The position numbers were made by a program, and so were the translations under genes. A stretch of DNA of 50,109 nucleotides from Shigella phage pSf-2: the sequence record KP085586. The stretch is one strand, 5' to 3'. Each line of letters begins with the position of its first letter. The stretch's first letter is position 1. Under the pieces are notes generated by a model. It was not told where the DNA came from. It worked only from the letters and a program-made list of their open reading frames with translations, and made no database searches. Of this stretch, positions 1,980 to 48,689 are shown one piece after another.

Positions 1980-2138
1980 TTACAGGTAGTAACCATTCAG
2001 AGGTGCTTGGATTACTGAGCCTCTACCGTCGTAAATCTCAAACAATCCCCAACCGAAATCATAACCAACACTATAGATCTGATTTACGCGGAATGGAAGT
2101 GTTTTGGAGTTATTTCGGATGCACTTAACTCGTTTCAT
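1980..2138 (-). CDS. hypothetical small protein (52 aa, not in ORF track)
   Basis: aaagagg SD before ATG 2138; sits 57 nt downstream of motif copy 2196..2213 with tatagt box. Confidence 0.35.
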   Translation of the reverse strand: MKRVKCIRNNSKTLPFRVNQIYSVGYDFGWGLFEIYDGRGSVIQAPLNGYYL

Positions 2139-33065: not shown

Positions 33066-34634
33066 TTACCGCTTAACCATCCCGGCGAGCCGCTTCATTC
33101 TCTCGATAGGATCATCAATGGTCAGCAATTCGATGTTCGCCGCATCCATGAAGTTATCGACGATATCATCATGCGGATGTGTGTCATCGTAAGTGAAGGC
33201 GCTGTGTTCAGCGATAATTTCAGCAAGCATAGGGTGCTCTTCTGGCAGAACCACACGCCCGGCTTTAATAACTGGCTGAGCATCCATAGCTCGGGTAACT
33301 TTGTCTTTGTTACGCTGCAACGGAGTGATAGAGATCGGAGTCTTTTTCCTGAGGTTCTGGATAAGGCCCGTACCGCTCGCTTTATCTTCCACGTAGATTT
33401 TTCGAAGCACGCCCATTGATTTATTGTGTCTCCATGCCTGATTAACGAAAGCGGTAAATTGTTTCTCCATATCCGGCGCTTCCCACTTACCGCGAATGCC
33501 GTCAATAAAGTAAACCTTATCGTTCTTCTTACCCCACAAGCAAAAGACTGTGTAGTCGTTTAGCTCGCCTGTCTTCTGAGCGGTATCGGCAGTGATGAAA
33601 CGGTAGTCGTACTTACCCGGATCTGGTTCGTCAGCGTCAAGGCTGCTGCCGTAATAAGTCCACCATTCCGAGTTAAACACGGAGCCACCAAGCGCGATCG
33701 GCTTCTGCTGATACTGAGAGTCAAAGGTGTACTGGTCAGCTTCGCGAAGCGCTAACAGGTCATGTACACTCTCCTTACTGGGCCAGAACGAGTAATGCTT
33801 GACGCCATCAAGTTCGACATACTCAGACGATAAAACGTCGCGCTCGAAGTAAGGTTGTAACCAGTCAGGAAGCGTCTTTCCGTATTCTTCCGTAACCAGC
33901 GCCGGGATTGAGATCTGGTCAAACTCAATACCCATCCCGCCATTCATCATGAACCATGTTGAATCCTGCGCGTGCAGCCTCTGCTGAATCGCAATAATTG
34001 GCGTCTCGTTGTGCATACGACGCGATCGAATGGTGTTCTTCAGTAGCATATGAGTACGCTCACGCTTAACCTTTGAGAACATATCATCAGGCTTATCGAT
34101 ATCGTCGAGCATCACCATACCGGAGAATCCCGGCATCATGTAGCCACCACGCGAACCAGTAATACGACCGCCAGCCGCTGCGGATATTAGCTCAAACCAA
34201 ACCTTTCCATCGCTATTAAGGACTTGCATCTCTTCGTCCTTCGACGTGCCGAATTTGCAGGGCCATAATTCTTGGAACTCGTTGCTGCTGATAATCTCAC
34301 GCACGCGCTTACTGTTACGCTTAACCAGACTGTCGGCAAACGACACGTTAAGGTTTCGCACCTTCTTACACTTGAGCATCGCGTACACCGGGAGATGTAT
34401 TGAGAACACCTCGGTTTTACCGGAGCCTGGCGTAACGTTAAAGATAGTATTACCGCGTCGGCCTGCAATAATTTCCTCCACTTCGTGGCAGAGGTAAAGG
34501 TGATGCCAGTTAGGCTGGAACTGCTGAGCCTGCATAAGCTGGAACCAGATCCGAATCATTTTTTCGAAATTGGCCTCGCTCATTTTCTTGATCGCTAACT
34601 TCTGAGTTGCGTCGAGTTCTTCCCATTGAATCAT
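33066..34634 (-). CDS. terminase large subunit
   Basis: 522 aa; ATPase N-domain, acidic nuclease-type motifs in C-half; upstream of portal. Confidence 0.85.
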   Translation of the reverse strand: MIQWEELDATQKLAIKKMSEANFEKMIRIWFQLMQAQQFQPNWHHLYLCHEVEEIIAGRRGNTIFNVTPGSGKTEVFSIHLPVYAMLKCKKVRNLNVSFADSLVKRNSKRVREIISSNEFQELWPCKFGTSKDEEMQVLNSDGKVWFELISAAAGGRITGSRGGYMMPGFSGMVMLDDIDKPDDMFSKVKRERTHMLLKNTIRSRRMHNETPIIAIQQRLHAQDSTWFMMNGGMGIEFDQISIPALVTEEYGKTLPDWLQPYFERDVLSSEYVELDGVKHYSFWPSKESVHDLLALREADQYTFDSQYQQKPIALGGSVFNSEWWTYYGSSLDADEPDPGKYDYRFITADTAQKTGELNDYTVFCLWGKKNDKVYFIDGIRGKWEAPDMEKQFTAFVNQAWRHNKSMGVLRKIYVEDKASGTGLIQNLRKKTPISITPLQRNKDKVTRAMDAQPVIKAGRVVLPEEHPMLAEIIAEHSAFTYDDTHPHDDIVDNFMDAANIELLTIDDPIERMKRLAGMVKR

Positions 34635-36002: not shown

Positions 36003-36206
36003 TCAATCATTAATTTCAAATTGGCCCTTAGTAATATCCTGCGGGTAGTCAATCTCATGAATATTTCCATCGTCTCCGTATACAAATACGAGTCTCTTTG
36101 CTTTACTTACTCTTTCAACGTCATACAAGCATCCAGCTGAGAAAGCATCACCATTGCGTGATGTAACACATCGAACCTGATCGCCTTTCTTCGGTAAATT
36201 GGCCAT
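36003..36206 (-). CDS. hypothetical protein
   Basis: 67-codon ORF in tightly coupled operon. Confidence 0.5.
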   Translation of the reverse strand: MANLPKKGDQVRCVTSRNGDAFSAGCLYDVERVSKAKRLVFVYGDDGNIHEIDYPQDITKGQFEIND

Positions 36207-37062: not shown

Positions 37063-37631
37063 TTGTTGATGAACGTGGCGGCTATGTGCTGAGCGGTAAT
37101 TTCTGGATGACCTTCGACAGAAAAGAAGTCACACTCATGATAACCGTTGACACCGATCATATCGTCAAGATAGATATAGTCGCGGCTGTCGTTGTCAAAG
37201 TTGCAACCGTTGCGATGGATTCGACACAGCTTGACCTGGATGTCACCTTCAATCATCTGCAAGATCTCGTCTTTGAATCCACCGTCAGTAAATACCGAAA
37301 GTGAATGCGACTCTTTCACCTTGCTTTCCGCTCGCATACCGAAGAAGCGATTTCCGAACTGCGGCTTGATGACCTCCTCGCTAATCCAGATCATAAACTG
37401 GCGCGGGCTTTTACCGTTCAGGATTGATGCTGGCTCTTCTTTATATCGACGGTCCTCATACAAGAACATGAAATACTCGTAGTTAGCTTCACCCAGGATT
37501 GCCCGGGCAATCTCAAACATTGGCGCTTTGAAGCTGCGTAGCGCTACATGATCGTAAGTGTCAGCCAGGATGCATCCGATAGTGTCCTTTCCTGCGCCAG
37601 GCGCGCCGTTTAAAATGATAGCTGTTTTCAT
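37059..37631 (-). CDS. P-loop kinase (dNMP kinase / polynucleotide kinase-like)
   Basis: N-terminal Walker A MKTAIILNGAPGAGKDT resembling T4 dNMP kinase / Pnk kinase domain. Confidence 0.6.
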   Translation of the reverse strand: MKTAIILNGAPGAGKDTIGCILADTYDHVALRSFKAPMFEIARAILGEANYEYFMFLYEDRRYKEEPASILNGKSPRQFMIWISEEVIKPQFGNRFFGMRAESKVKESHSLSVFTDGGFKDEILQMIEGDIQVKLCRIHRNGCNFDNDSRDYIYLDDMIGVNGYHECDFFSVEGHPEITAQHIAATFINK

Positions 37632-37632
37632 G

Positions 37633-37743
37633 TTAGCATCTCCCTAAAAATAATTTTGCCATATTGATGATAGTGTGATTGATGATTAACAGGATGATAA
37701 CCGTCAATACCGGATGTGCTGCAATAAATTCGTACAGGTTCAT
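37633..37743 (-). CDS. small hydrophobic protein (36 aa, not in ORF track)
   Basis: ATGA overlap with HAD gene stop, TAA 1 nt before kinase ATG; TM segment PVLTVIILLII. Confidence 0.3.
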   Translation of the reverse strand: MNLYEFIAAHPVLTVIILLIINHTIINMAKLFLGRC

Positions 37744-38273
37744 TCATCTACCCCGTGAGATTTTAAATGATTGTGAACGTTATCGCCATAGTCAACTACA
37801 GCGTAAGTGGTTATCCCAAGCGATCGGAATAATGGAATAATTTGCGGCGAGTCATCCCAGGCCGCCAGAATGTTCTCAATACCGATAGCGCGCACCGCCT
37901 CCTCTTTCATCACCGTATCTTTCCGGTTATCGGTGTGCGGACGCATAATCAGGTAATCATATCGCGCACCGTAGCGCTTTAACCATAACTTTGATTCGTG
38001 ACGCACCTCATCACTACGTCCGGTTAAGATAATGACGTGATAACCCGCAGCAAATAATGAGTTCATCACCTCAATAGTGCTCTGAATAGGATCGTCATGA
38101 TTTGCTGCACGGTTAAATTCAGACCAACTTTCCGTAAGGTGCAAATCATTTGTCGGTAGCAAGTGGAGGCGCTTTGAGCCATCGCTAAGCGTTCCGTCAA
38201 AGTCAAAGATTGCTACGCGGCGCGCGCCGAGAAACAGGTTGATTGTCTGGCCCCAAATTGTGATTTTATCCAT
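37740..38273 (-). CDS. HAD-superfamily phosphatase (Pnk 3'-phosphatase / 5'-nucleotidase-like)
   Basis: DxDGT motif FDFDGTL near N-terminus; HAD-like spacing of later Asp residues. Confidence 0.6.
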   Translation of the reverse strand: MDKITIWGQTINLFLGARRVAIFDFDGTLSDGSKRLHLLPTNDLHLTESWSEFNRAANHDDPIQSTIEVMNSLFAAGYHVIILTGRSDEVRHESKLWLKRYGARYDYLIMRPHTDNRKDTVMKEEAVRAIGIENILAAWDDSPQIIPLFRSLGITTYAVVDYGDNVHNHLKSHGVDE

Positions 38274-38855: not shown

Positions 38856-38893
38856 CTCCAAAAGAAAGGGGAACCGTTCAGAGCCGATTCCCC
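38856..38893 (-). terminator. Rho-independent terminator
   Basis: ggggaa/ttcccc stem with 14-nt loop followed by T-rich run on minus strand. Confidence 0.45.
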
Positions 38894-38900
38894 ATTAGCA

Positions 38901-39539
38901 TTACATGATGAACAACAGCGAAATCGAAGCGACCAAGAGAACAAGAGCGATAGCCAAACCAGACAAATCTGCCTTCTCTTCAAACTTCAGCGCTGGCTTA
39001 CGGTCAACTTCCGACGGCTTGACGTTGTGGATCTTGTTAGCTGCAACATTGCCATTGACGCTGAAAGTGCGCTTGCGCTTCTTGCCGAACGTTGCGAACT
39101 TAGTGCCGCCGCTGTTCCAGCGAAGGCCTTCGCCATTGTGAGTTACGGTTGCAATTCGGTGGCGGCCCGTGTCATCGGTCAGCGCTACAGTGTGCTTTGC
39201 GTGCTCAGTAGGCACGTCGTAGATTTTGCCAACAGTAAATTTTTTGGTGTTATCGCTGATACATTCGAATTTCATAAATTTTACCTCTTTATTATGCAGT
39301 TGGTTGATTGCTTCGATTACGTCGTTAAATTTAACACCATCCACGATCCGATGAAAGATATATTTTGAACTACCGCCATACGGAAGGAAAATTTCCTGAT
39401 ATTCGCGACGACGGACAATGTTCACGTTACTACCGTGCTCATCAGTAATGATGAAGCTGTCATCATTTACGCGAACACCTTTGTAAGTTTTTCCCCACTT
39501 AAAACCAGATCCGCTACTTGATACGCATTCAAATTTCAT
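38901..39539 (-). CDS. tail-anchored membrane protein with two tandem copies of a small Cys-containing domain
   Basis: Repeats MKFECVSSSGSGFKWGKTYKGV and MKFECISDNTKKFTVGKIYDV; C-terminal TM LAIALVLLVASISLLFI. Confidence 0.55.
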   Translation of the reverse strand: MKFECVSSSGSGFKWGKTYKGVRVNDDSFIITDEHGSNVNIVRRREYQEIFLPYGGSSKYIFHRIVDGVKFNDVIEAINQLHNKEVKFMKFECISDNTKKFTVGKIYDVPTEHAKHTVALTDDTGRHRIATVTHNGEGLRWNSGGTKFATFGKKRKRTFSVNGNVAANKIHNVKPSEVDRKPALKFEEKADLSGLAIALVLLVASISLLFIM

Positions 39540-39823
39540 GGTCTAACCTTCCTGTAAGGTTTGATTGATAACATCACGTACTGCGTGAAGTAGCATTCTT
39601 GCTCGTCATACCCGCGATTGATGTATGGCGTCACATCAGTAACATCAGATACCCTGGCGTGAACTTCCCACCCGGTAAACTCATCGCGATCGAACTCGCA
39701 TAGCTCCAGGATATCGCCAGGCTGGAAGTTTCGGTCATTGACGCGGAACTCTGCCGTTTTGGTTCCGTTCATTACTCCGATGAAATGTACCGGGGCGATT
39801 TTTAACTTATGAGTTTTGCTCAT
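39536..39823 (-). CDS. ASCH/DUF3850-like PUA-fold protein
   Basis: N-terminal KLKIAPVHF...GTKTAEFRVNDRNFQPGDIL pattern. Confidence 0.5.
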   Translation of the reverse strand: MSKTHKLKIAPVHFIGVMNGTKTAEFRVNDRNFQPGDILELCEFDRDEFTGWEVHARVSDVTDVTPYINRGYDEQECYFTQYVMLSIKPYRKVRP

Positions 39824-41366: not shown

Positions 41367-41384
41367 TTTAACAAAAAGTGCTAT
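41367..41384 (-). promoter_or_regulatory. 18-bp dyad motif copy (tttaacaaaaagtgctat)
   Basis: Overlaps TAG stop of 41381..41572; minus strand: 22 nt then tatagt. Confidence 0.7.
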
Positions 41385-41572
41385 TCTTTAATCTCGAAGC
41401 AATCAGTATCTTCGTCGAATATCCAGGGATCGCCATTATCATCAAGCAATGAGATATTCCCGAAGCTGGTTAGTGACGCGTTATAAGGCTTGTTAACGGT
41501 AAAGCACCCTTTAACTTCCTCATCATCACTGCCTTTGAATACTGCAATCATTTGGTGCATAAAATCAGCCAT
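41381..41572 (-). CDS. hypothetical acidic small protein
   Basis: 63-codon ORF, aggat SD. Confidence 0.45.
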   Translation of the reverse strand: MADFMHQMIAVFKGSDDEEVKGCFTVNKPYNASLTSFGNISLLDDNGDPWIFDEDTDCFEIKE

Positions 41573-42322: not shown

Positions 42323-42386
42323 GGTGATTCCTCTGATTGGTATCTCGTTTCGATGGGGTAACTATATCAAGATACCCCGATTCGTT

Positions 42387-42404
42387 TTTAACAATTCGTG
42401 CTAT
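42387..42404 (-). promoter_or_regulatory. 18-bp dyad motif copy (tttaacaattcgtgctat)
   Basis: Overlaps TAG stop of 42401..42871; minus strand: 22 nt then tatagt flanked by ggggta/tacccc. Confidence 0.7.
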
Positions 42405-42871
42405 TTGGTGAGATATTTCACACAGCTTCCGGCAGTCTCATTCCAGCCATCCTCAAAGAATACGCCATAGCAAGTTGTCGAACGCTGGCGAACCTTCGAC
42501 ACAGTGCGCCACACTTTACGGCCCGAGTAACCAGTCAGCACACGCATCCCCGGCAACAACTCACCAGCCTTTCTCACCTCAATGGTCACATCAGAACCAA
42601 GCTCGAAAGACTCAAGGAAAACCGGGTCAATCATATCACACATGCGGCGCTCTTCATGCCCATCGTGCCACTCGCCACCATCTCTTAATTTAACATGCTC
42701 AATAAATCGACTAAGTTTTTCAGTGATCGAGTCGCAGGCGTAGGAGTTGATATCGATAACCGTGTAGCGACTGTACATATGCCAGTGCGATCCGGTTTTA
42801 TGCTCGAACGCGAATAATGACATAGCGCCGTCAACATTATCTTTAGCAAGAAATACGGTAATGGTCGCCAT
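42401..42871 (-). CDS. hypothetical protein
   Basis: 156-codon ORF, agagg SD. Confidence 0.55.
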   Translation of the reverse strand: MATITVFLAKDNVDGAMSLFAFEHKTGSHWHMYSRYTVIDINSYACDSITEKLSRFIEHVKLRDGGEWHDGHEERRMCDMIDPVFLESFELGSDVTIEVRKAGELLPGMRVLTGYSGRKVWRTVSKVRQRSTTCYGVFFEDGWNETAGSCVKYLTK

Positions 42872-42873
42872 GA

Positions 42874-43068
42874 TTAAGCCTCTGCAAAGTAAGTGTTAAA
42901 GCCTTTGAGTTTGTAGTCGCTACCTACGCGCACAACATTCCAGGTAAGGCCAGAGTGATACGCCACCATATCTTCCAGGTCGATTGTGATTTCAGTTCCT
43001 TTCTTGAACAGACCCTTTTCATGGGTTGAGTCCCGCTGAACAACCACTACGTCAATTTGCGTTTCCAT
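42874..43068 (-). CDS. hypothetical protein (start moved to internal ATG)
   Basis: agagga SD before ATG 43068; track start 43134 lies inside the motif. Confidence 0.45.
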   Translation of the reverse strand: METQIDVVVVQRDSTHEKGLFKKGTEITIDLEDMVAYHSGLTWNVVRVGSDYKLKGFNTYFAEA

Positions 43069-43989: not shown

Positions 43990-44047
43990 AATATATCCTC
44001 TTTGTCTATTCGCGTGTAAATGGTGTCATAATGTGTCAACAATTGCC

Positions 44048-44076
44048 ATTGTGACATCTCGATGTAGAGCTGTCAA
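44048..44076 (-). promoter_or_regulatory. sigma70-like promoter candidate (TTGACA-17-CACAAT) for leftward early operon
   Basis: Consensus -35 with 17-bp spacer, 58 nt upstream of ATG 43989; TGTCA/TGACA inverted repeats nearby. Confidence 0.4.
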
Positions 44077-44129
44077 TGCCTGCGAGCCAATTTTAAGCCG
44101 TGTAACATTTGTCTAGCTGTCTATAGCCA

Positions 44130-44390
44130 CTATAGAAATATATGGCTCTCAAAAAAAGTACTGTATATATAAACACTCAGATAGAAATATGCCAACAGTA
44201 CGCTAGACAATGTAAGACAGCTATACACAACTATTACAATATAATTATCTATATATATAAATAAAAAAAACACTATATATATTATATATATACATATATC
44301 TATATGTATATTGTGAGGCGTCACAGTGTGTATTTTTGTCACAAGTGCGATTCTAGACAAATATTACAGTCGTGACAAGTTAAAGTGTAA
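44130..44390. repeat. AT-rich tract with (TA)n/ATATA runs and TAGACA / GTCACAAG repeats; candidate origin or early control region
   Basis: Long ATATATA-type tracts at 44160-44320; repeated ctagacaa, gtcacaag/gtgacaag words. Confidence 0.45.
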
Positions 44391-44393
44391 TCG

Positions 44394-44411
44394 ATAGCAC
44401 TTTTTGCTAAA
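44394..44411 (+). promoter_or_regulatory. 18-bp dyad motif copy (atagcactttttgctaaa)
   Basis: First rightward copy; no clear -10 at 22 bp. Confidence 0.5.
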
Positions 44412-44598
44412 AATGGAGATGAATGCCAGGCGAACCGGGTAACACCAATTCCTCCCTCTCACAATCATTGCATTCTCAGCAACAAATCAACCAACTGTTG
44501 CACACCATGCAATAATCACGTTTCATCATTCGTAATCAATAACAATCAAGATTATTCCACCTATTCCAGTATTGATTGAATAATGAGCAATTATTGGA

Positions 44599-44616
44599 AT
44601 AGCATTTTTTGCTAAC
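44599..44616 (+). promoter_or_regulatory. 18-bp dyad motif copy, variant (atagcattttttgctaac)
   Basis: tatgat about 23 nt downstream, then caaccaatcaggag leader to ATG 44675. Confidence 0.6.
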
Positions 44617-44674
44617 GACTTAGCAAGGCCGATTGGGTATGATTCATCACATCAACCAATCAGGAGCAATCGAC

Positions 44675-44818: not shown

Positions 44819-45519
44819 AGTTGATTTGGTCGCTATTCGACGGTTCCGGCCTGGCAGGTCATGAACTGGCAAAGCAAGGTCATAAGGTGATGTGCTTCAA
44901 CTTTGACGGGGCAGATCACGGAGATTACGCAAAGTACAATGCCCGGGTAGAGCATCCGAACATTGAGTATGTGAACGTCTTCATTGATGAGAAGTTCGAA
45001 CGTGATGCGATCGCTGGTGTGTATGGCAAACCTGATTTCATCATGGCTTTCCCACCATGCACTGACCTAGCTGTTAGTGGTGCTCGCCATTTTGCCAGCA
45101 AGCGTGAACGTGATCCGTTATTCCATGAGAAGGCTGTTGCCACCGCTCGGATTGCTGCTAATATTGGCGAAGCTATGGGCGTGACGTACATCATTGAGAA
45201 TCCGGTTAGCGTCCTGTCATCTGCCTGGAGAAAACCAGATCACTCCTTTAATCCCTGGGAGTATGGCGGCTATCTTCCTGAGAATGACTCACATCCCTGG
45301 TTCCCGATGTATATTGCGCCGCGCGATGCTTACCCTAAGAAGACGTGTCTTTGGACCTCGGACGATTTTGTCATGCCGGAGAGAAATCCAGTAAGCCTGC
45401 CTGACGGGTACTCTGCACAGCAAAACAAGCTGGGCGGCAAGTCTGCCAAAACTAAGCTGATACGATCCCTGTCGCCGCGTGGATTTTTCAAAGCGATCGC
45501 AAATAGCACTTTTTGTTAA
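44815..45519 (+). CDS. minimal C5-cytosine methyltransferase-like protein
   Basis: Motif I-like LFDGSGLAG, PC motif FPPCTDLAVSG, ENV-like IIENPVS with canonical spacing; only 234 aa; aaggag SD. Confidence 0.5.
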   Translation: MKLIWSLFDGSGLAGHELAKQGHKVMCFNFDGADHGDYAKYNARVEHPNIEYVNVFIDEKFERDAIAGVYGKPDFIMAFPPCTDLAVSGARHFASKRERDPLFHEKAVATARIAANIGEAMGVTYIIENPVSVLSSAWRKPDHSFNPWEYGGYLPENDSHPWFPMYIAPRDAYPKKTCLWTSDDFVMPERNPVSLPDGYSAQQNKLGGKSAKTKLIRSLSPRGFFKAIANSTFC

Positions 45520-45780: not shown

Positions 45781-45966
45781 ATGAAAACGAAATTAGTGCA
45801 TAAATCAGAAATCAAGATCGGCGATACTGTGATTCACAACGGAGAGCTTAGAACAGTTGGTAAGGAGTCAATAAGCAGAGATGAATTTATGGGGTTATTG
45901 TTGTTCGGCGACTCCTATCGCCTGGGGTGCAAAATGGTTGAGCTTGTTGAGGAAGTAAAATTCTAA
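45781..45966 (+). CDS. hypothetical small protein
   Basis: 61-codon ORF, weak SD. Confidence 0.4.
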   Translation: MKTKLVHKSEIKIGDTVIHNGELRTVGKESISRDEFMGLLLFGDSYRLGCKMVELVEEVKF

Positions 45967-46983: not shown

Positions 46984-47176
46984 TAATATTTACCGCGTAG
47001 TGGCGATCTCACGCAAGACGCAAAAGAGCGTAGTTGCCTACATGGGAAATAGCGCCATTGAGGCAACAGACGACTTCGAGCTACTGAAGAATAACGAAGG
47101 ATTTATGAACACGTTCCGCGTTCGACTTGAGCGTCTCGAACCTGTTATAATTGATGAAGCGCGAAAGCTATCCTGA
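46976..47176 (+). CDS. hypothetical small protein (start moved to internal ATG)
   Basis: aaggagg SD before ATG 46976; overlaps upstream TGA. Confidence 0.45.
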   Translation: MSDNIYRVVAISRKTQKSVVAYMGNSAIEATDDFELLKNNEGFMNTFRVRLERLEPVIIDEARKLS

Positions 47177-47192
47177 CTGGTTAGGGGGAATA

Positions 47193-47513
47193 ATGAACCA
47201 CACTTATAAAATCACAACGAAATCACCGAAGATTAACGGAAGCACGGTCGCGGCATTGAATAACGCGGCAGCAATCCACGAAAAAAACATCATGGAGCGC
47301 GTGAAGGCGGCAGTAGGCCGATTCTATGGAATCAACGCTGATATTGCCGACAGCAAGCGACTGTTCAAATACGTGCCAGGTCATCCATATAGCCGGATGA
47401 TCGATATTAAGCATGATAAAGAACTGGTTCGAATCGGATCGCTTAGCATTGACGAGTTCGACCATAGCATTAACCTTGTGACGGCGTATCAAACATGGGA
47501 CGGTAAAAAATGA
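47193..47513 (+). CDS. hypothetical protein (start moved to internal ATG)
   Basis: aggggg SD before ATG 47193. Confidence 0.5.
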   Translation: MNHTYKITTKSPKINGSTVAALNNAAAIHEKNIMERVKAAVGRFYGINADIADSKRLFKYVPGHPYSRMIDIKHDKELVRIGSLSIDEFDHSINLVTAYQTWDGKK

Positions 47514-47653
47514 TTTATATTCACACTTTCTATACTGGCAAATTTAACAGCGTAAAAAATGTTCGCGTTTACGATAGCCACCAAAAAGCAATGATGCAGA
47601 AAGTAGTTCTAGGTGGAACAATCAAAGAGTGTAAAGTAATTTCCGAGTACTGA
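47510..47653 (+). CDS. hypothetical small protein (47 aa, not in ORF track)
   Basis: ATGA overlap with upstream stop; TGA merges into next motif copy. Confidence 0.3.
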   Translation: MIYIHTFYTGKFNSVKNVRVYDSHQKAMMQKVVLGGTIKECKVISEY

Positions 47654-48189: not shown

Positions 48190-48251
48190 ATTGCCGTAAG
48201 GTCATTTGATAAAGTGGCCTTATTCAAGATAACCAATCAGGAGTGAACGCA

Positions 48252-48668
48252 ATGAAATCCATCAAACTTAAATGTACTTCCGCAGACAAAATCACAGGAT
48301 TTGAAGTTAACAACCTTTACAAAGGTCGAGAGCGCTACGATGGAACTCGTGAGGTTAAGTTAAAGTGCGGTAAGTATTTAAAACTTGATAAGCATGATGA
48401 ATTACAGATTCACGGATCTGATGAAATCTTCTTCGCAAAATTCACTGAACTTAAAACCAAAACACTCAAGTGTACCGGGCTTGACCATCGCAACACAATG
48501 AAAAAATCATTCAAAGTTGGCAAGCGTTACCAGGTGGAAAGCGGTCGTGCTCTCGGTGGAGTGGCTGGTTACATCTTTGATGAGGACGGTTGCCGCTGGA
48601 CATTATTCCGCGAAGAGGTTGGTTTTAGTATTGCTGACGGCACAACCTTTGAGGCCAAATACTTATAA
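48252..48668 (+). CDS. protein with tandem small Cys-containing repeats (start moved to ATG 48252)
   Basis: aggag SD; track start 48243 is GTG; repeats KLKCTSADKITGFEV / TLKCTGLDHRNTMKKSFKVGKRY resemble those in 38901..39539. Confidence 0.5.
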   Translation: MKSIKLKCTSADKITGFEVNNLYKGRERYDGTREVKLKCGKYLKLDKHDELQIHGSDEIFFAKFTELKTKTLKCTGLDHRNTMKKSFKVGKRYQVESGRALGGVAGYIFDEDGCRWTLFREEVGFSIADGTTFEAKYL

Positions 48669-48671
48669 CCA

Positions 48672-48689
48672 ATAGCACTTTTTGCAAAA
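48672..48689 (+). promoter_or_regulatory. 18-bp dyad motif copy (atagcactttttgcaaaa)
   Basis: 22 nt then tatcat (48710-48715); aaggag SD and ATG 48745 follow. Confidence 0.65.

Follow-up and report, generated by a model that had tools for sequence, protein, structure and literature searches.

The only characterised protein known to share the fold described here is Gp54 of Escherichia phage Bas11 (PDB 9AXB), the second trigger of the bacterial immunity protein CapRelSJ46, to which it binds directly (Zhang et al., Nature 2024, PMC11578894). Its fold has been described as very rare, and close homologues from other phages fail to activate CapRelSJ46 (PMC11578894). A second point of reference is DUF7244, a family of the Pfam SH3 clan whose stand-alone gene consistently adjoins the holin, endolysin and spanin genes in Drexlerviridae; paralogues and Gp54 go unmentioned in its description (Eremina et al., IJMS 2026, PMC13164509). 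Here we examine Shigella phage pSf-2 (KP085586), whose 50,109-nucleotide sequence, called the window below, is a complete, circularly permuted T1-like genome (Drexlerviridae, Tunavirus). Over the stretches tested, it is 92-99% identical to Shigella phage phiL, Shfl1, Eco_BIFF and many others. Two of its genes, gene A (38901..39539, minus strand) and gene B (48252..48668, plus strand), each encode two copies of one SH3-like β-barrel, and further copies are found elsewhere in the genome.

Genes A and B are annotated as "hypothetical protein" everywhere. Gene A encodes 212 aa, belongs to phrog_10580 (E 8e-136) and has 44 homologues, exclusively in T1-like phages. Gene B, read from the ATG at 48252, encodes 138 aa and belongs to phrog_2684; it has 113 homologues, and a note in the SA32RD record marks its homology to T1p07. 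An earlier note, written from the sequence alone, had picked out a small Cys-containing peptide occurring twice in each gene. All four peptides are present, exactly as quoted. In gene A they cover residues 1-22 (A1, nt 39474-39539, minus strand) and 89-109 (A2, nt 39213-39275, minus strand); in gene B they cover residues 5-25 (B1, nt 48264-48326, plus strand) and 71-93 (B2, nt 48462-48530, plus strand). Against 2000 shuffles, the Smith-Waterman score of A1 with A2 reached z = 11, and pairs across the two genes reached z = 2.5-5.7. As a reader had picked the segments, these cross-gene values are weak by themselves and are not convincing.

Profile tests, which are independent of that choice of segments, gave a clearer answer. 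Hidden Markov models (HMMs) built from the family of each domain found the other gene as their best or joint-best foreign match among the 870 six-frame open reading frames (ORFs) of the window. For a wider sample, 93 related Drexlerviridae loci and the Bas11 genome yielded 11,226 non-redundant ORFs and 689 family profiles. Among these profiles, hhsearch linked A1 with A2 at 95-96% probability. In its two directions, the link of DUF7244 scored 92% and 89.5% with B1, 82% and 77% with A1, and 60% and 75% with A2; A2 was linked with B1 at 59% and with B2 at 51%. The links of A1, A2, B1 and DUF7244 are reciprocal and top-ranked, and the A2-B2 link also outranks nearly all other families. No direct link joined B2 to the local DUF7244 profile of 30 sequences in hhsearch. 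Only first-shell links were used, as transitive expansion drifted after two rounds into unrelated C-terminal domains and translated 5' leaders.

We also left out one family at a time and searched all 11,226 ORFs. With every gene A sequence withheld, the superfamily HMM recovered gene A at E 3.9e-8; with every gene B sequence withheld, it recovered the gene B of the window at E 1.1e-9, scoring both barrels. In neither test did a non-family ORF outscore the gene sought. Taken singly, the domains of the window proteins received independent E-values of 0.09 (A1), 0.006 (A2), 9e-5 (B1) and 0.009 (B2), and B2 is the weakest of the four segments at the sequence level. Taken together, pairwise z values, hhsearch and left-out HMMs place the similarity above shuffled controls, and the profile tests bear out the suggestion of the earlier note that a common domain family of unknown function joins two otherwise unrelated genes.

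The unit that is shared is larger than a peptide of about 21 residues. Template-free AlphaFold models of both genes give all four barrels six strands, and the four segments form the N-terminal signature of a 60-70 residue, six-stranded SH3-like β-barrel. Each segment runs through strand 1 (K-h-x-C-h) and a long loop to the start of strand 2 (F-x-x-G-K-x-Y), so that the models and the signature alignment turn what had been read as a repeat of 21-23 residues into the first third of a domain. The complete signature is [KR]-h-x-C-h ... F-x-x-G-K-x-Y, followed by an h-h-D-[DE]-x-G hairpin and often by a terminal F-E. The loop between strands 1 and 2 is nine residues long in A1 and fifteen in B2. 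Mean predicted local distance difference test (pLDDT) scores are 70 for gene A, with the first barrel at about 90, and 92 for gene B. Structural neighbours of the models in BFVD are uncharacterised phage proteins, DUF7244 proteins among them. Given an SH3-like barrel, the earlier guess of a "binding module" was a reasonable one.

Within this signature, the residue that first drew attention is not the most constant. Tyr19 of G-K-x-Y is invariant in 13 of 13 families, and Phe13 and Gly37 (D-D-x-G) are nearly so, all in one register. The Cys position holds Cys in 10 of the 13 families and Val in two, and is absent in one; among B1 sequences, Val replaces Cys in 16 of 96. A Cys at this place in strand 1 is notable for small cytoplasmic proteins, and it could serve in metal binding, redox sensing, a disulfide or covalent modification. 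We find such a role scarcely credible: each domain has one conserved Cys, with no conserved His or Cys partner, the barrels are predicted to be cytoplasmic, and the position holds Val in two whole families and in part of B1, and Val or Ile in Gp54. As Cys alternates with Val across the 13 families, the position is a buried hydrophobic one rather than a functional site, and the functional reading was rejected. We conclude that this Cys lies buried in the core as part of strand 1 and has no catalytic, redox or metal-binding role.

Small barrels are known to recur, and the motif K-x-C ... F-x-x-G-K-x-Y might be imposed by the fold, with an independent origin at least for B2 and Gp54, in which case the "family" would amount to a structural class and not to a line of descent. 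The 51% hhsearch link and independent E of 0.009 for B2 would fit such convergence, as would the lack of detectable sequence similarity between Gp54 and the family. It is harder to reconcile with the reciprocal, first-ranked links of A1, A2, B1 and DUF7244 among 689 families, with Phe13, Tyr19 and Gly37 columns that hold across 13 families in one register, or with the co-occurrence of all the families in a single phage lineage. Moreover, one family, phrog_14592, aligns A2 and B2 in the same register. Convergence is, in our judgement, improbable.

In gene A, the two barrels are followed by what looks like a membrane attachment. Barrel A1 (39336..39539, minus strand; residues 1-68, containing the first segment) is modelled at a pLDDT of about 90, with strands at residues 2-8, 18-25, 28-32, 38-45, 50-53 and 60-66. 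A linker helix (39294..39329, minus strand; residues 71-82 in the AlphaFold secondary structure) leads to barrel A2 (39084..39275, minus strand; residues 89-152, containing the second segment), whose strands lie at residues 88-95, 106-110, 117-121, 127-133, 138-140 and 147-150. A2 is the most conserved part of the gene A family and matches phrog_14592 at E 8e-7. Next comes a disordered basic tether (38967..39083, minus strand; residues 153-191) with 11 Lys/Arg against 5 Asp/Glu and an isoelectric point (pI) of 10.2; pLDDT is below 50 over residues 153-195. The protein closes with a C-terminal transmembrane tail anchor (38904..38966, minus strand; residues 192-212, LSGLAIALVLLVASISLLFIM) that has a grand average of hydropathicity of 2.66 and zero charged residues. 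AlphaFold models a helix over residues 187-211, and the anchor ends at the stop codon. The earlier description of gene A as a tail-anchored membrane protein agrees with this predicted layout: there is no N-terminal signal, the tether is basic, and 21 hydrophobic residues at the C terminus are predicted to be helical. Gene A would thus have the features of tail-anchored proteins, namely a single C-terminal helix, no signal and positive charge N-terminal to the helix, and this arrangement predicts that the barrels are cytoplasmic.

Variants of this architecture occur in other phages. Compared with 39276..39539 (minus strand) of the window, phage T1 (L095, 3331..3993) lacks barrel A1. An in-frame, untranslated piece of the linker ("..NQLEVKF") remains in T1 between the stop codon and the ATG. 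A1 is therefore either dispensable or a later addition, and the two-barrel form is polymorphic among T1-like phages. In other phages, the products of L062 832..1137 (minus strand) and protein P0167 each join one barrel through a basic stretch to a transmembrane helix at the C terminus, as the short gene A of T1 does, but come from families that are divergent in sequence.

Gene B is a soluble two-barrel protein with no membrane segment. Barrel B1 (48252..48455, plus strand; residues 1-68, containing the third segment) has six strands in the AlphaFold model. It is the variable half, and in part of the gene B family another N-terminal module takes its place (P0131/bas11_0048). Barrel B2 (48456..48665, plus strand; residues 69-138, containing the fourth segment) is highly conserved, with strands at residues 71-76, 92-101, 104-109 and 115-120 and two short C-terminal ones in the model; it carries a conserved E-S-G-R-A-L-G-G-V-A-G loop. 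The pI is 9.6 for gene A and 9.2 for gene B, and about 9 for each barrel.

The earlier note had counted four copies in two genes. The window holds at least seven sequence-detectable barrel copies in five genes and, besides these, an orthologue of Gp54 that matches in fold. One copy is a stand-alone barrel and a true DUF7244 member, a 52-aa protein encoded at 1980..2138 (minus strand; phrog_4788) that matches PF23896 with 81.3 bits (E 5e-23). Synteny with Bas11 and phage KanT1 places this gene beside the lysis cassette. Two more ORFs are probable stand-alone barrels, judged by their sequences. The first (36003..36206, minus strand; 67 aa, phrog_4927) has sub-threshold matches to the A1 and A2 HMMs and a left-out HMM E of 0.026; A2 matches phrog_4927 in a consistent register, and hhsearch gave no link for this ORF among the 689 profiles. 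The second (41381..41572, minus strand; 63 aa, phrog_11551) matches the B1 and B2 HMMs, phrog_14592 at E 1e-3 and the left-out HMM at E 1.4e-3, and has Val at the Cys position. A 61-aa ORF at 45781..45966 (plus strand; MKTKLVHKSEIKIGDTVIHNGELRTV...) resembles a small beta-rich KOW- or SH3-like protein and is not detected by the superfamily HMM. NCBIfam returned zero matches for six proteins, and sequence searches of the PDB with the ORFs at 36003..36206 and 41381..41572 and with the gene B alignment returned nothing relevant.

The DUF7244 copy raises the question of whether genes A and B themselves might be cell-wall-binding or lysis-accessory SH3 domains that modulate endolysin or envelope functions. 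Such a role could draw on the place of DUF7244 in the SH3 clan, on its stand-alone gene beside holin, endolysin and spanin (PMC13164509), and on the predicted membrane anchor of gene A. Against this, the circular distance from the copy beside the lysis genes is about 12 kb for gene A and about 3.5 kb for gene B, and both belong to other transcription units. A signal peptide is missing from each protein, and the basic tether N-terminal to the gene A anchor predicts cytoplasmic barrels. The lysis role is, moreover, itself a hypothesis drawn from gene order. We regard a lysis function for genes A and B as highly improbable.

The family extends well beyond this phage. A profile of the seven window domains found 62 proteins at E <= 1e-3 among 1.84 billion representative proteins, including proteins with two to six tandem barrels that match Pfam DUF6501 and DUF7244. 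Five proteins of 882-3465 aa (P0158, P0164, P0169, P0172 and P0175) match just profile positions ~24-59, five to 31 times each. Very long proteins of this kind, such as one of 2195 aa with 31 partial matches at positions 27-47, were set aside as probable false positives, since they look like RHS/YD-repeat proteins that match the Y-D-x-x-G hairpin. Other Drexlerviridae hold more families of the barrel, and in some of these a different module or a membrane anchor is fused on the C-terminal side. In Bas11 (L002), at least six genes besides Gp54 carry DUF7244-like barrel copies, at 45147..45338, 47025..47219, 47201..47653, 42369..42554, 33759..33929 and 37578..37943. The idea of a private, phage-internal family was therefore too narrow: one copy is a DUF7244 member at 81 bits, distant relatives match DUF6501 and DUF7244, and the fold has been solved (PDB 9AXB).

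Genes A and B lie in two divergent blocks. An AT-rich intergenic region at ~44.0-44.6 kb (about 44000..44630) with several promoter-like sites divides the leftward block, on the gene A side, from the rightward block, on the gene B side, and looks like a divergent control region. The positions of the genes suggest, and are compatible with, the "early" expression proposed before; a literature search on the timing of T1-like expression gave nothing usable. Both genes have good ribosome-binding sites, AGGAAGG for gene A (39547-39553, minus strand) and GGAG for gene B (48240-48243, plus strand). The ATG of gene A overlaps the TGA of an upstream DUF3850/ASCH gene as ATGA (39536..39539), which suggests translational coupling. 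Directly 3' of the gene A stop is an intrinsic-terminator-like hairpin (38868..38893, minus strand) whose 9-bp stem has 6 G-C pairs and is followed by a T tract, TTTCTTTT. The DUF3850/ASCH neighbour is an RNA-binding protein according to RefSeq, and PNKP-type genes also adjoin gene A. In 74 of the 78 Drexlerviridae loci, gene B is followed in the same orientation by a gene for a DUF3987 helicase; 7 nt separate the two in the window (48668..48676), and 13-478 nt across loci when starts are taken from the longest ORFs.

These neighbours could be taken to mean that the barrels bind nucleic acid, like those of the KOW, Sm, Tudor or RecD-type SH3-like proteins. Gene B would then be a DNA-binding accessory to the adjacent helicase, such as a loader or processivity factor, and gene A would tether phage or host nucleic acid to the membrane. 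The helicase synteny at 74 of 78 loci, the DUF3850/ASCH and PNKP-type genes beside gene A and the basic character of both proteins and of their barrels are all in keeping with this proposal. Against it, the barrels have zero sequence or profile matches to nucleic-acid-binding families, and Gp54, the sole characterised protein with the fold, binds protein. We consider nucleic-acid binding rather unlikely, though it retains some real chance of being correct.

We think it probable, with considerable room for doubt, that the SH3-like barrel family and its paralogues act as partner-binding adaptors of accessory proteins, because SH3-like barrels generally mediate binding and Gp54 directly binds a host protein. 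The barrels would differ in the host or phage partner to which they are tuned. Gene A may display its two barrels at the cytoplasmic face of the inner membrane through the flexible basic tether of ~40 residues and the tail anchor, and could there capture a cytoplasmic partner, either to recruit or to sequester it. In gene B, the conserved B2 probably contacts a conserved partner of the replication module, possibly the DUF3987 helicase, and the variable B1 would supply a second, exchangeable specificity.

Several points weigh against this interpretation. The adaptor function is a proposed one for every member of the family, and Gp54 itself is non-essential, with CapRel triggering as its sole known role (PMC11578894). 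The contact between gene B and the helicase is likewise conjectural, and the synteny may simply mirror conserved gene order. The membrane topology of gene A is a prediction, and its second barrel is modelled at a pLDDT of just 70-85. Sequence supports B2 and the ORFs at 36003..36206 and 41381..41572 at E 0.001-0.03 only. No significant sequence link to Gp54 emerged: the left-out HMM gave E 1.2, hhalign with an enriched profile of 146 sequences gave 0.1%, and comparison of family against family also failed.

Since these sequence tests failed, it is structure that carries the relation to Gp54. Genes A and B share with it a barrel of six strands, the first two of which are joined by a prominent loop. 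The match is at the level of fold, between Gp54 and the whole two-domain models, and is not assigned to either barrel. Neither gene A nor gene B matched PF25180 at E <= 1. The window has its own Gp54 orthologue, a 64-aa protein encoded at 42874..43068 (minus strand) that matches PF25180, "Phage antiviral trigger protein Gp54", with 122.6 bits and the Gp54 family HMM at E 2e-41. This orthologue is the top untrained window match of the superfamily HMM, at an E of 0.34. Common descent of Gp54 and the barrel family is plausible but unproven. The resemblance extends to origin in Drexlerviridae, to small size and accessory status like those of the stand-alone barrels, and to the presence of the orthologue in the leftward block of the window. 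Gp54 differs in having a single domain, whereas genes A and B have two each and gene A adds a membrane anchor. The orthologue in the window departs from the Bas11 trigger at positions 7 and 25, with Val7 in place of Ala7 and Thr25 in place of Ile25. In Bas10, a nearly identical homologue with three differences, Val7 and Val25 among them, is reported not to activate CapRelSJ46, and reverting those two restores activation (PMC11578894). By comparison with it, the window allele is probably a non-trigger.

What the analysis provides is the domain annotation of a family of unknown function and no new mechanism. Two widespread "hypothetical" genes of T1-like phages, which make up the families of T1p07 and of the tail-anchored phrog_10580, are assigned a fold, and so, probably, are two other small ORFs. 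The new element is that the "rare" fold of a CapRel trigger is linked to an abundant, multi-copy phage domain family. The paralogues are concrete candidates for triggers or inhibitors of defence systems, and the DUF3987 helicase has a candidate partner in gene B. A broader and doubtful extension, to which we give only a small chance, is that the six-stranded Gp54-type barrel serves as the common scaffold of a large paralogous family that diversifies fast. The family would span Drexlerviridae, with eight barrels in six genes of this genome, and reach further, to DUF7244, DUF6501 and tandem arrays. Each member would be an interchangeable ligand of host proteins, and some would inhibit or trigger immunity proteins as Gp54 does, with gene A as a membrane-tethered version and gene B as a helicase-associated one.

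By sequence, DUF7244 (PF23896) is among the closest described families. Genes A and B match it, through A1 and B1, with 17.3 bits (E 0.005) and 18.4 bits (E 0.0024), below the 27-bit gathering threshold, and B1, A1 and A2 resemble it at the profile level in a consistent register. They share its SH3-like small β-barrel fold and its signature of K-C, F-x-x-G/N-x-x-Y and D-x-x-G; they differ from it in having two domains and in sitting in other genome modules. The reading of DUF7244 as a lysis module calls for caution, as most paralogues are encoded elsewhere and are apparently cytoplasmic. SH3b-type cell-wall-binding domains fit poorly: neither gene A nor gene B encodes a signal peptide, both lie outside the lysis cassette, and only the separate DUF7244 gene is lysis-adjacent. 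DUF6501 (PF20111) has the same motif, K-C-I-D ... L-T-V-G-K-x-Y-E-V ... D-D-x-G ... R-F-E, and distant relatives with three or four tandem barrels match DUF6501 and DUF7244 together, whereas genes A and B have no DUF6501 match at E <= 1. We conclude that genes A and B belong, as divergent members not recognised before, to the DUF7244/DUF6501 superfamily of the SH3 clan and have the fold of Gp54, and that Gp54, reported as an orphan, falls structurally within a much larger phage domain superfamily with many copies per genome.

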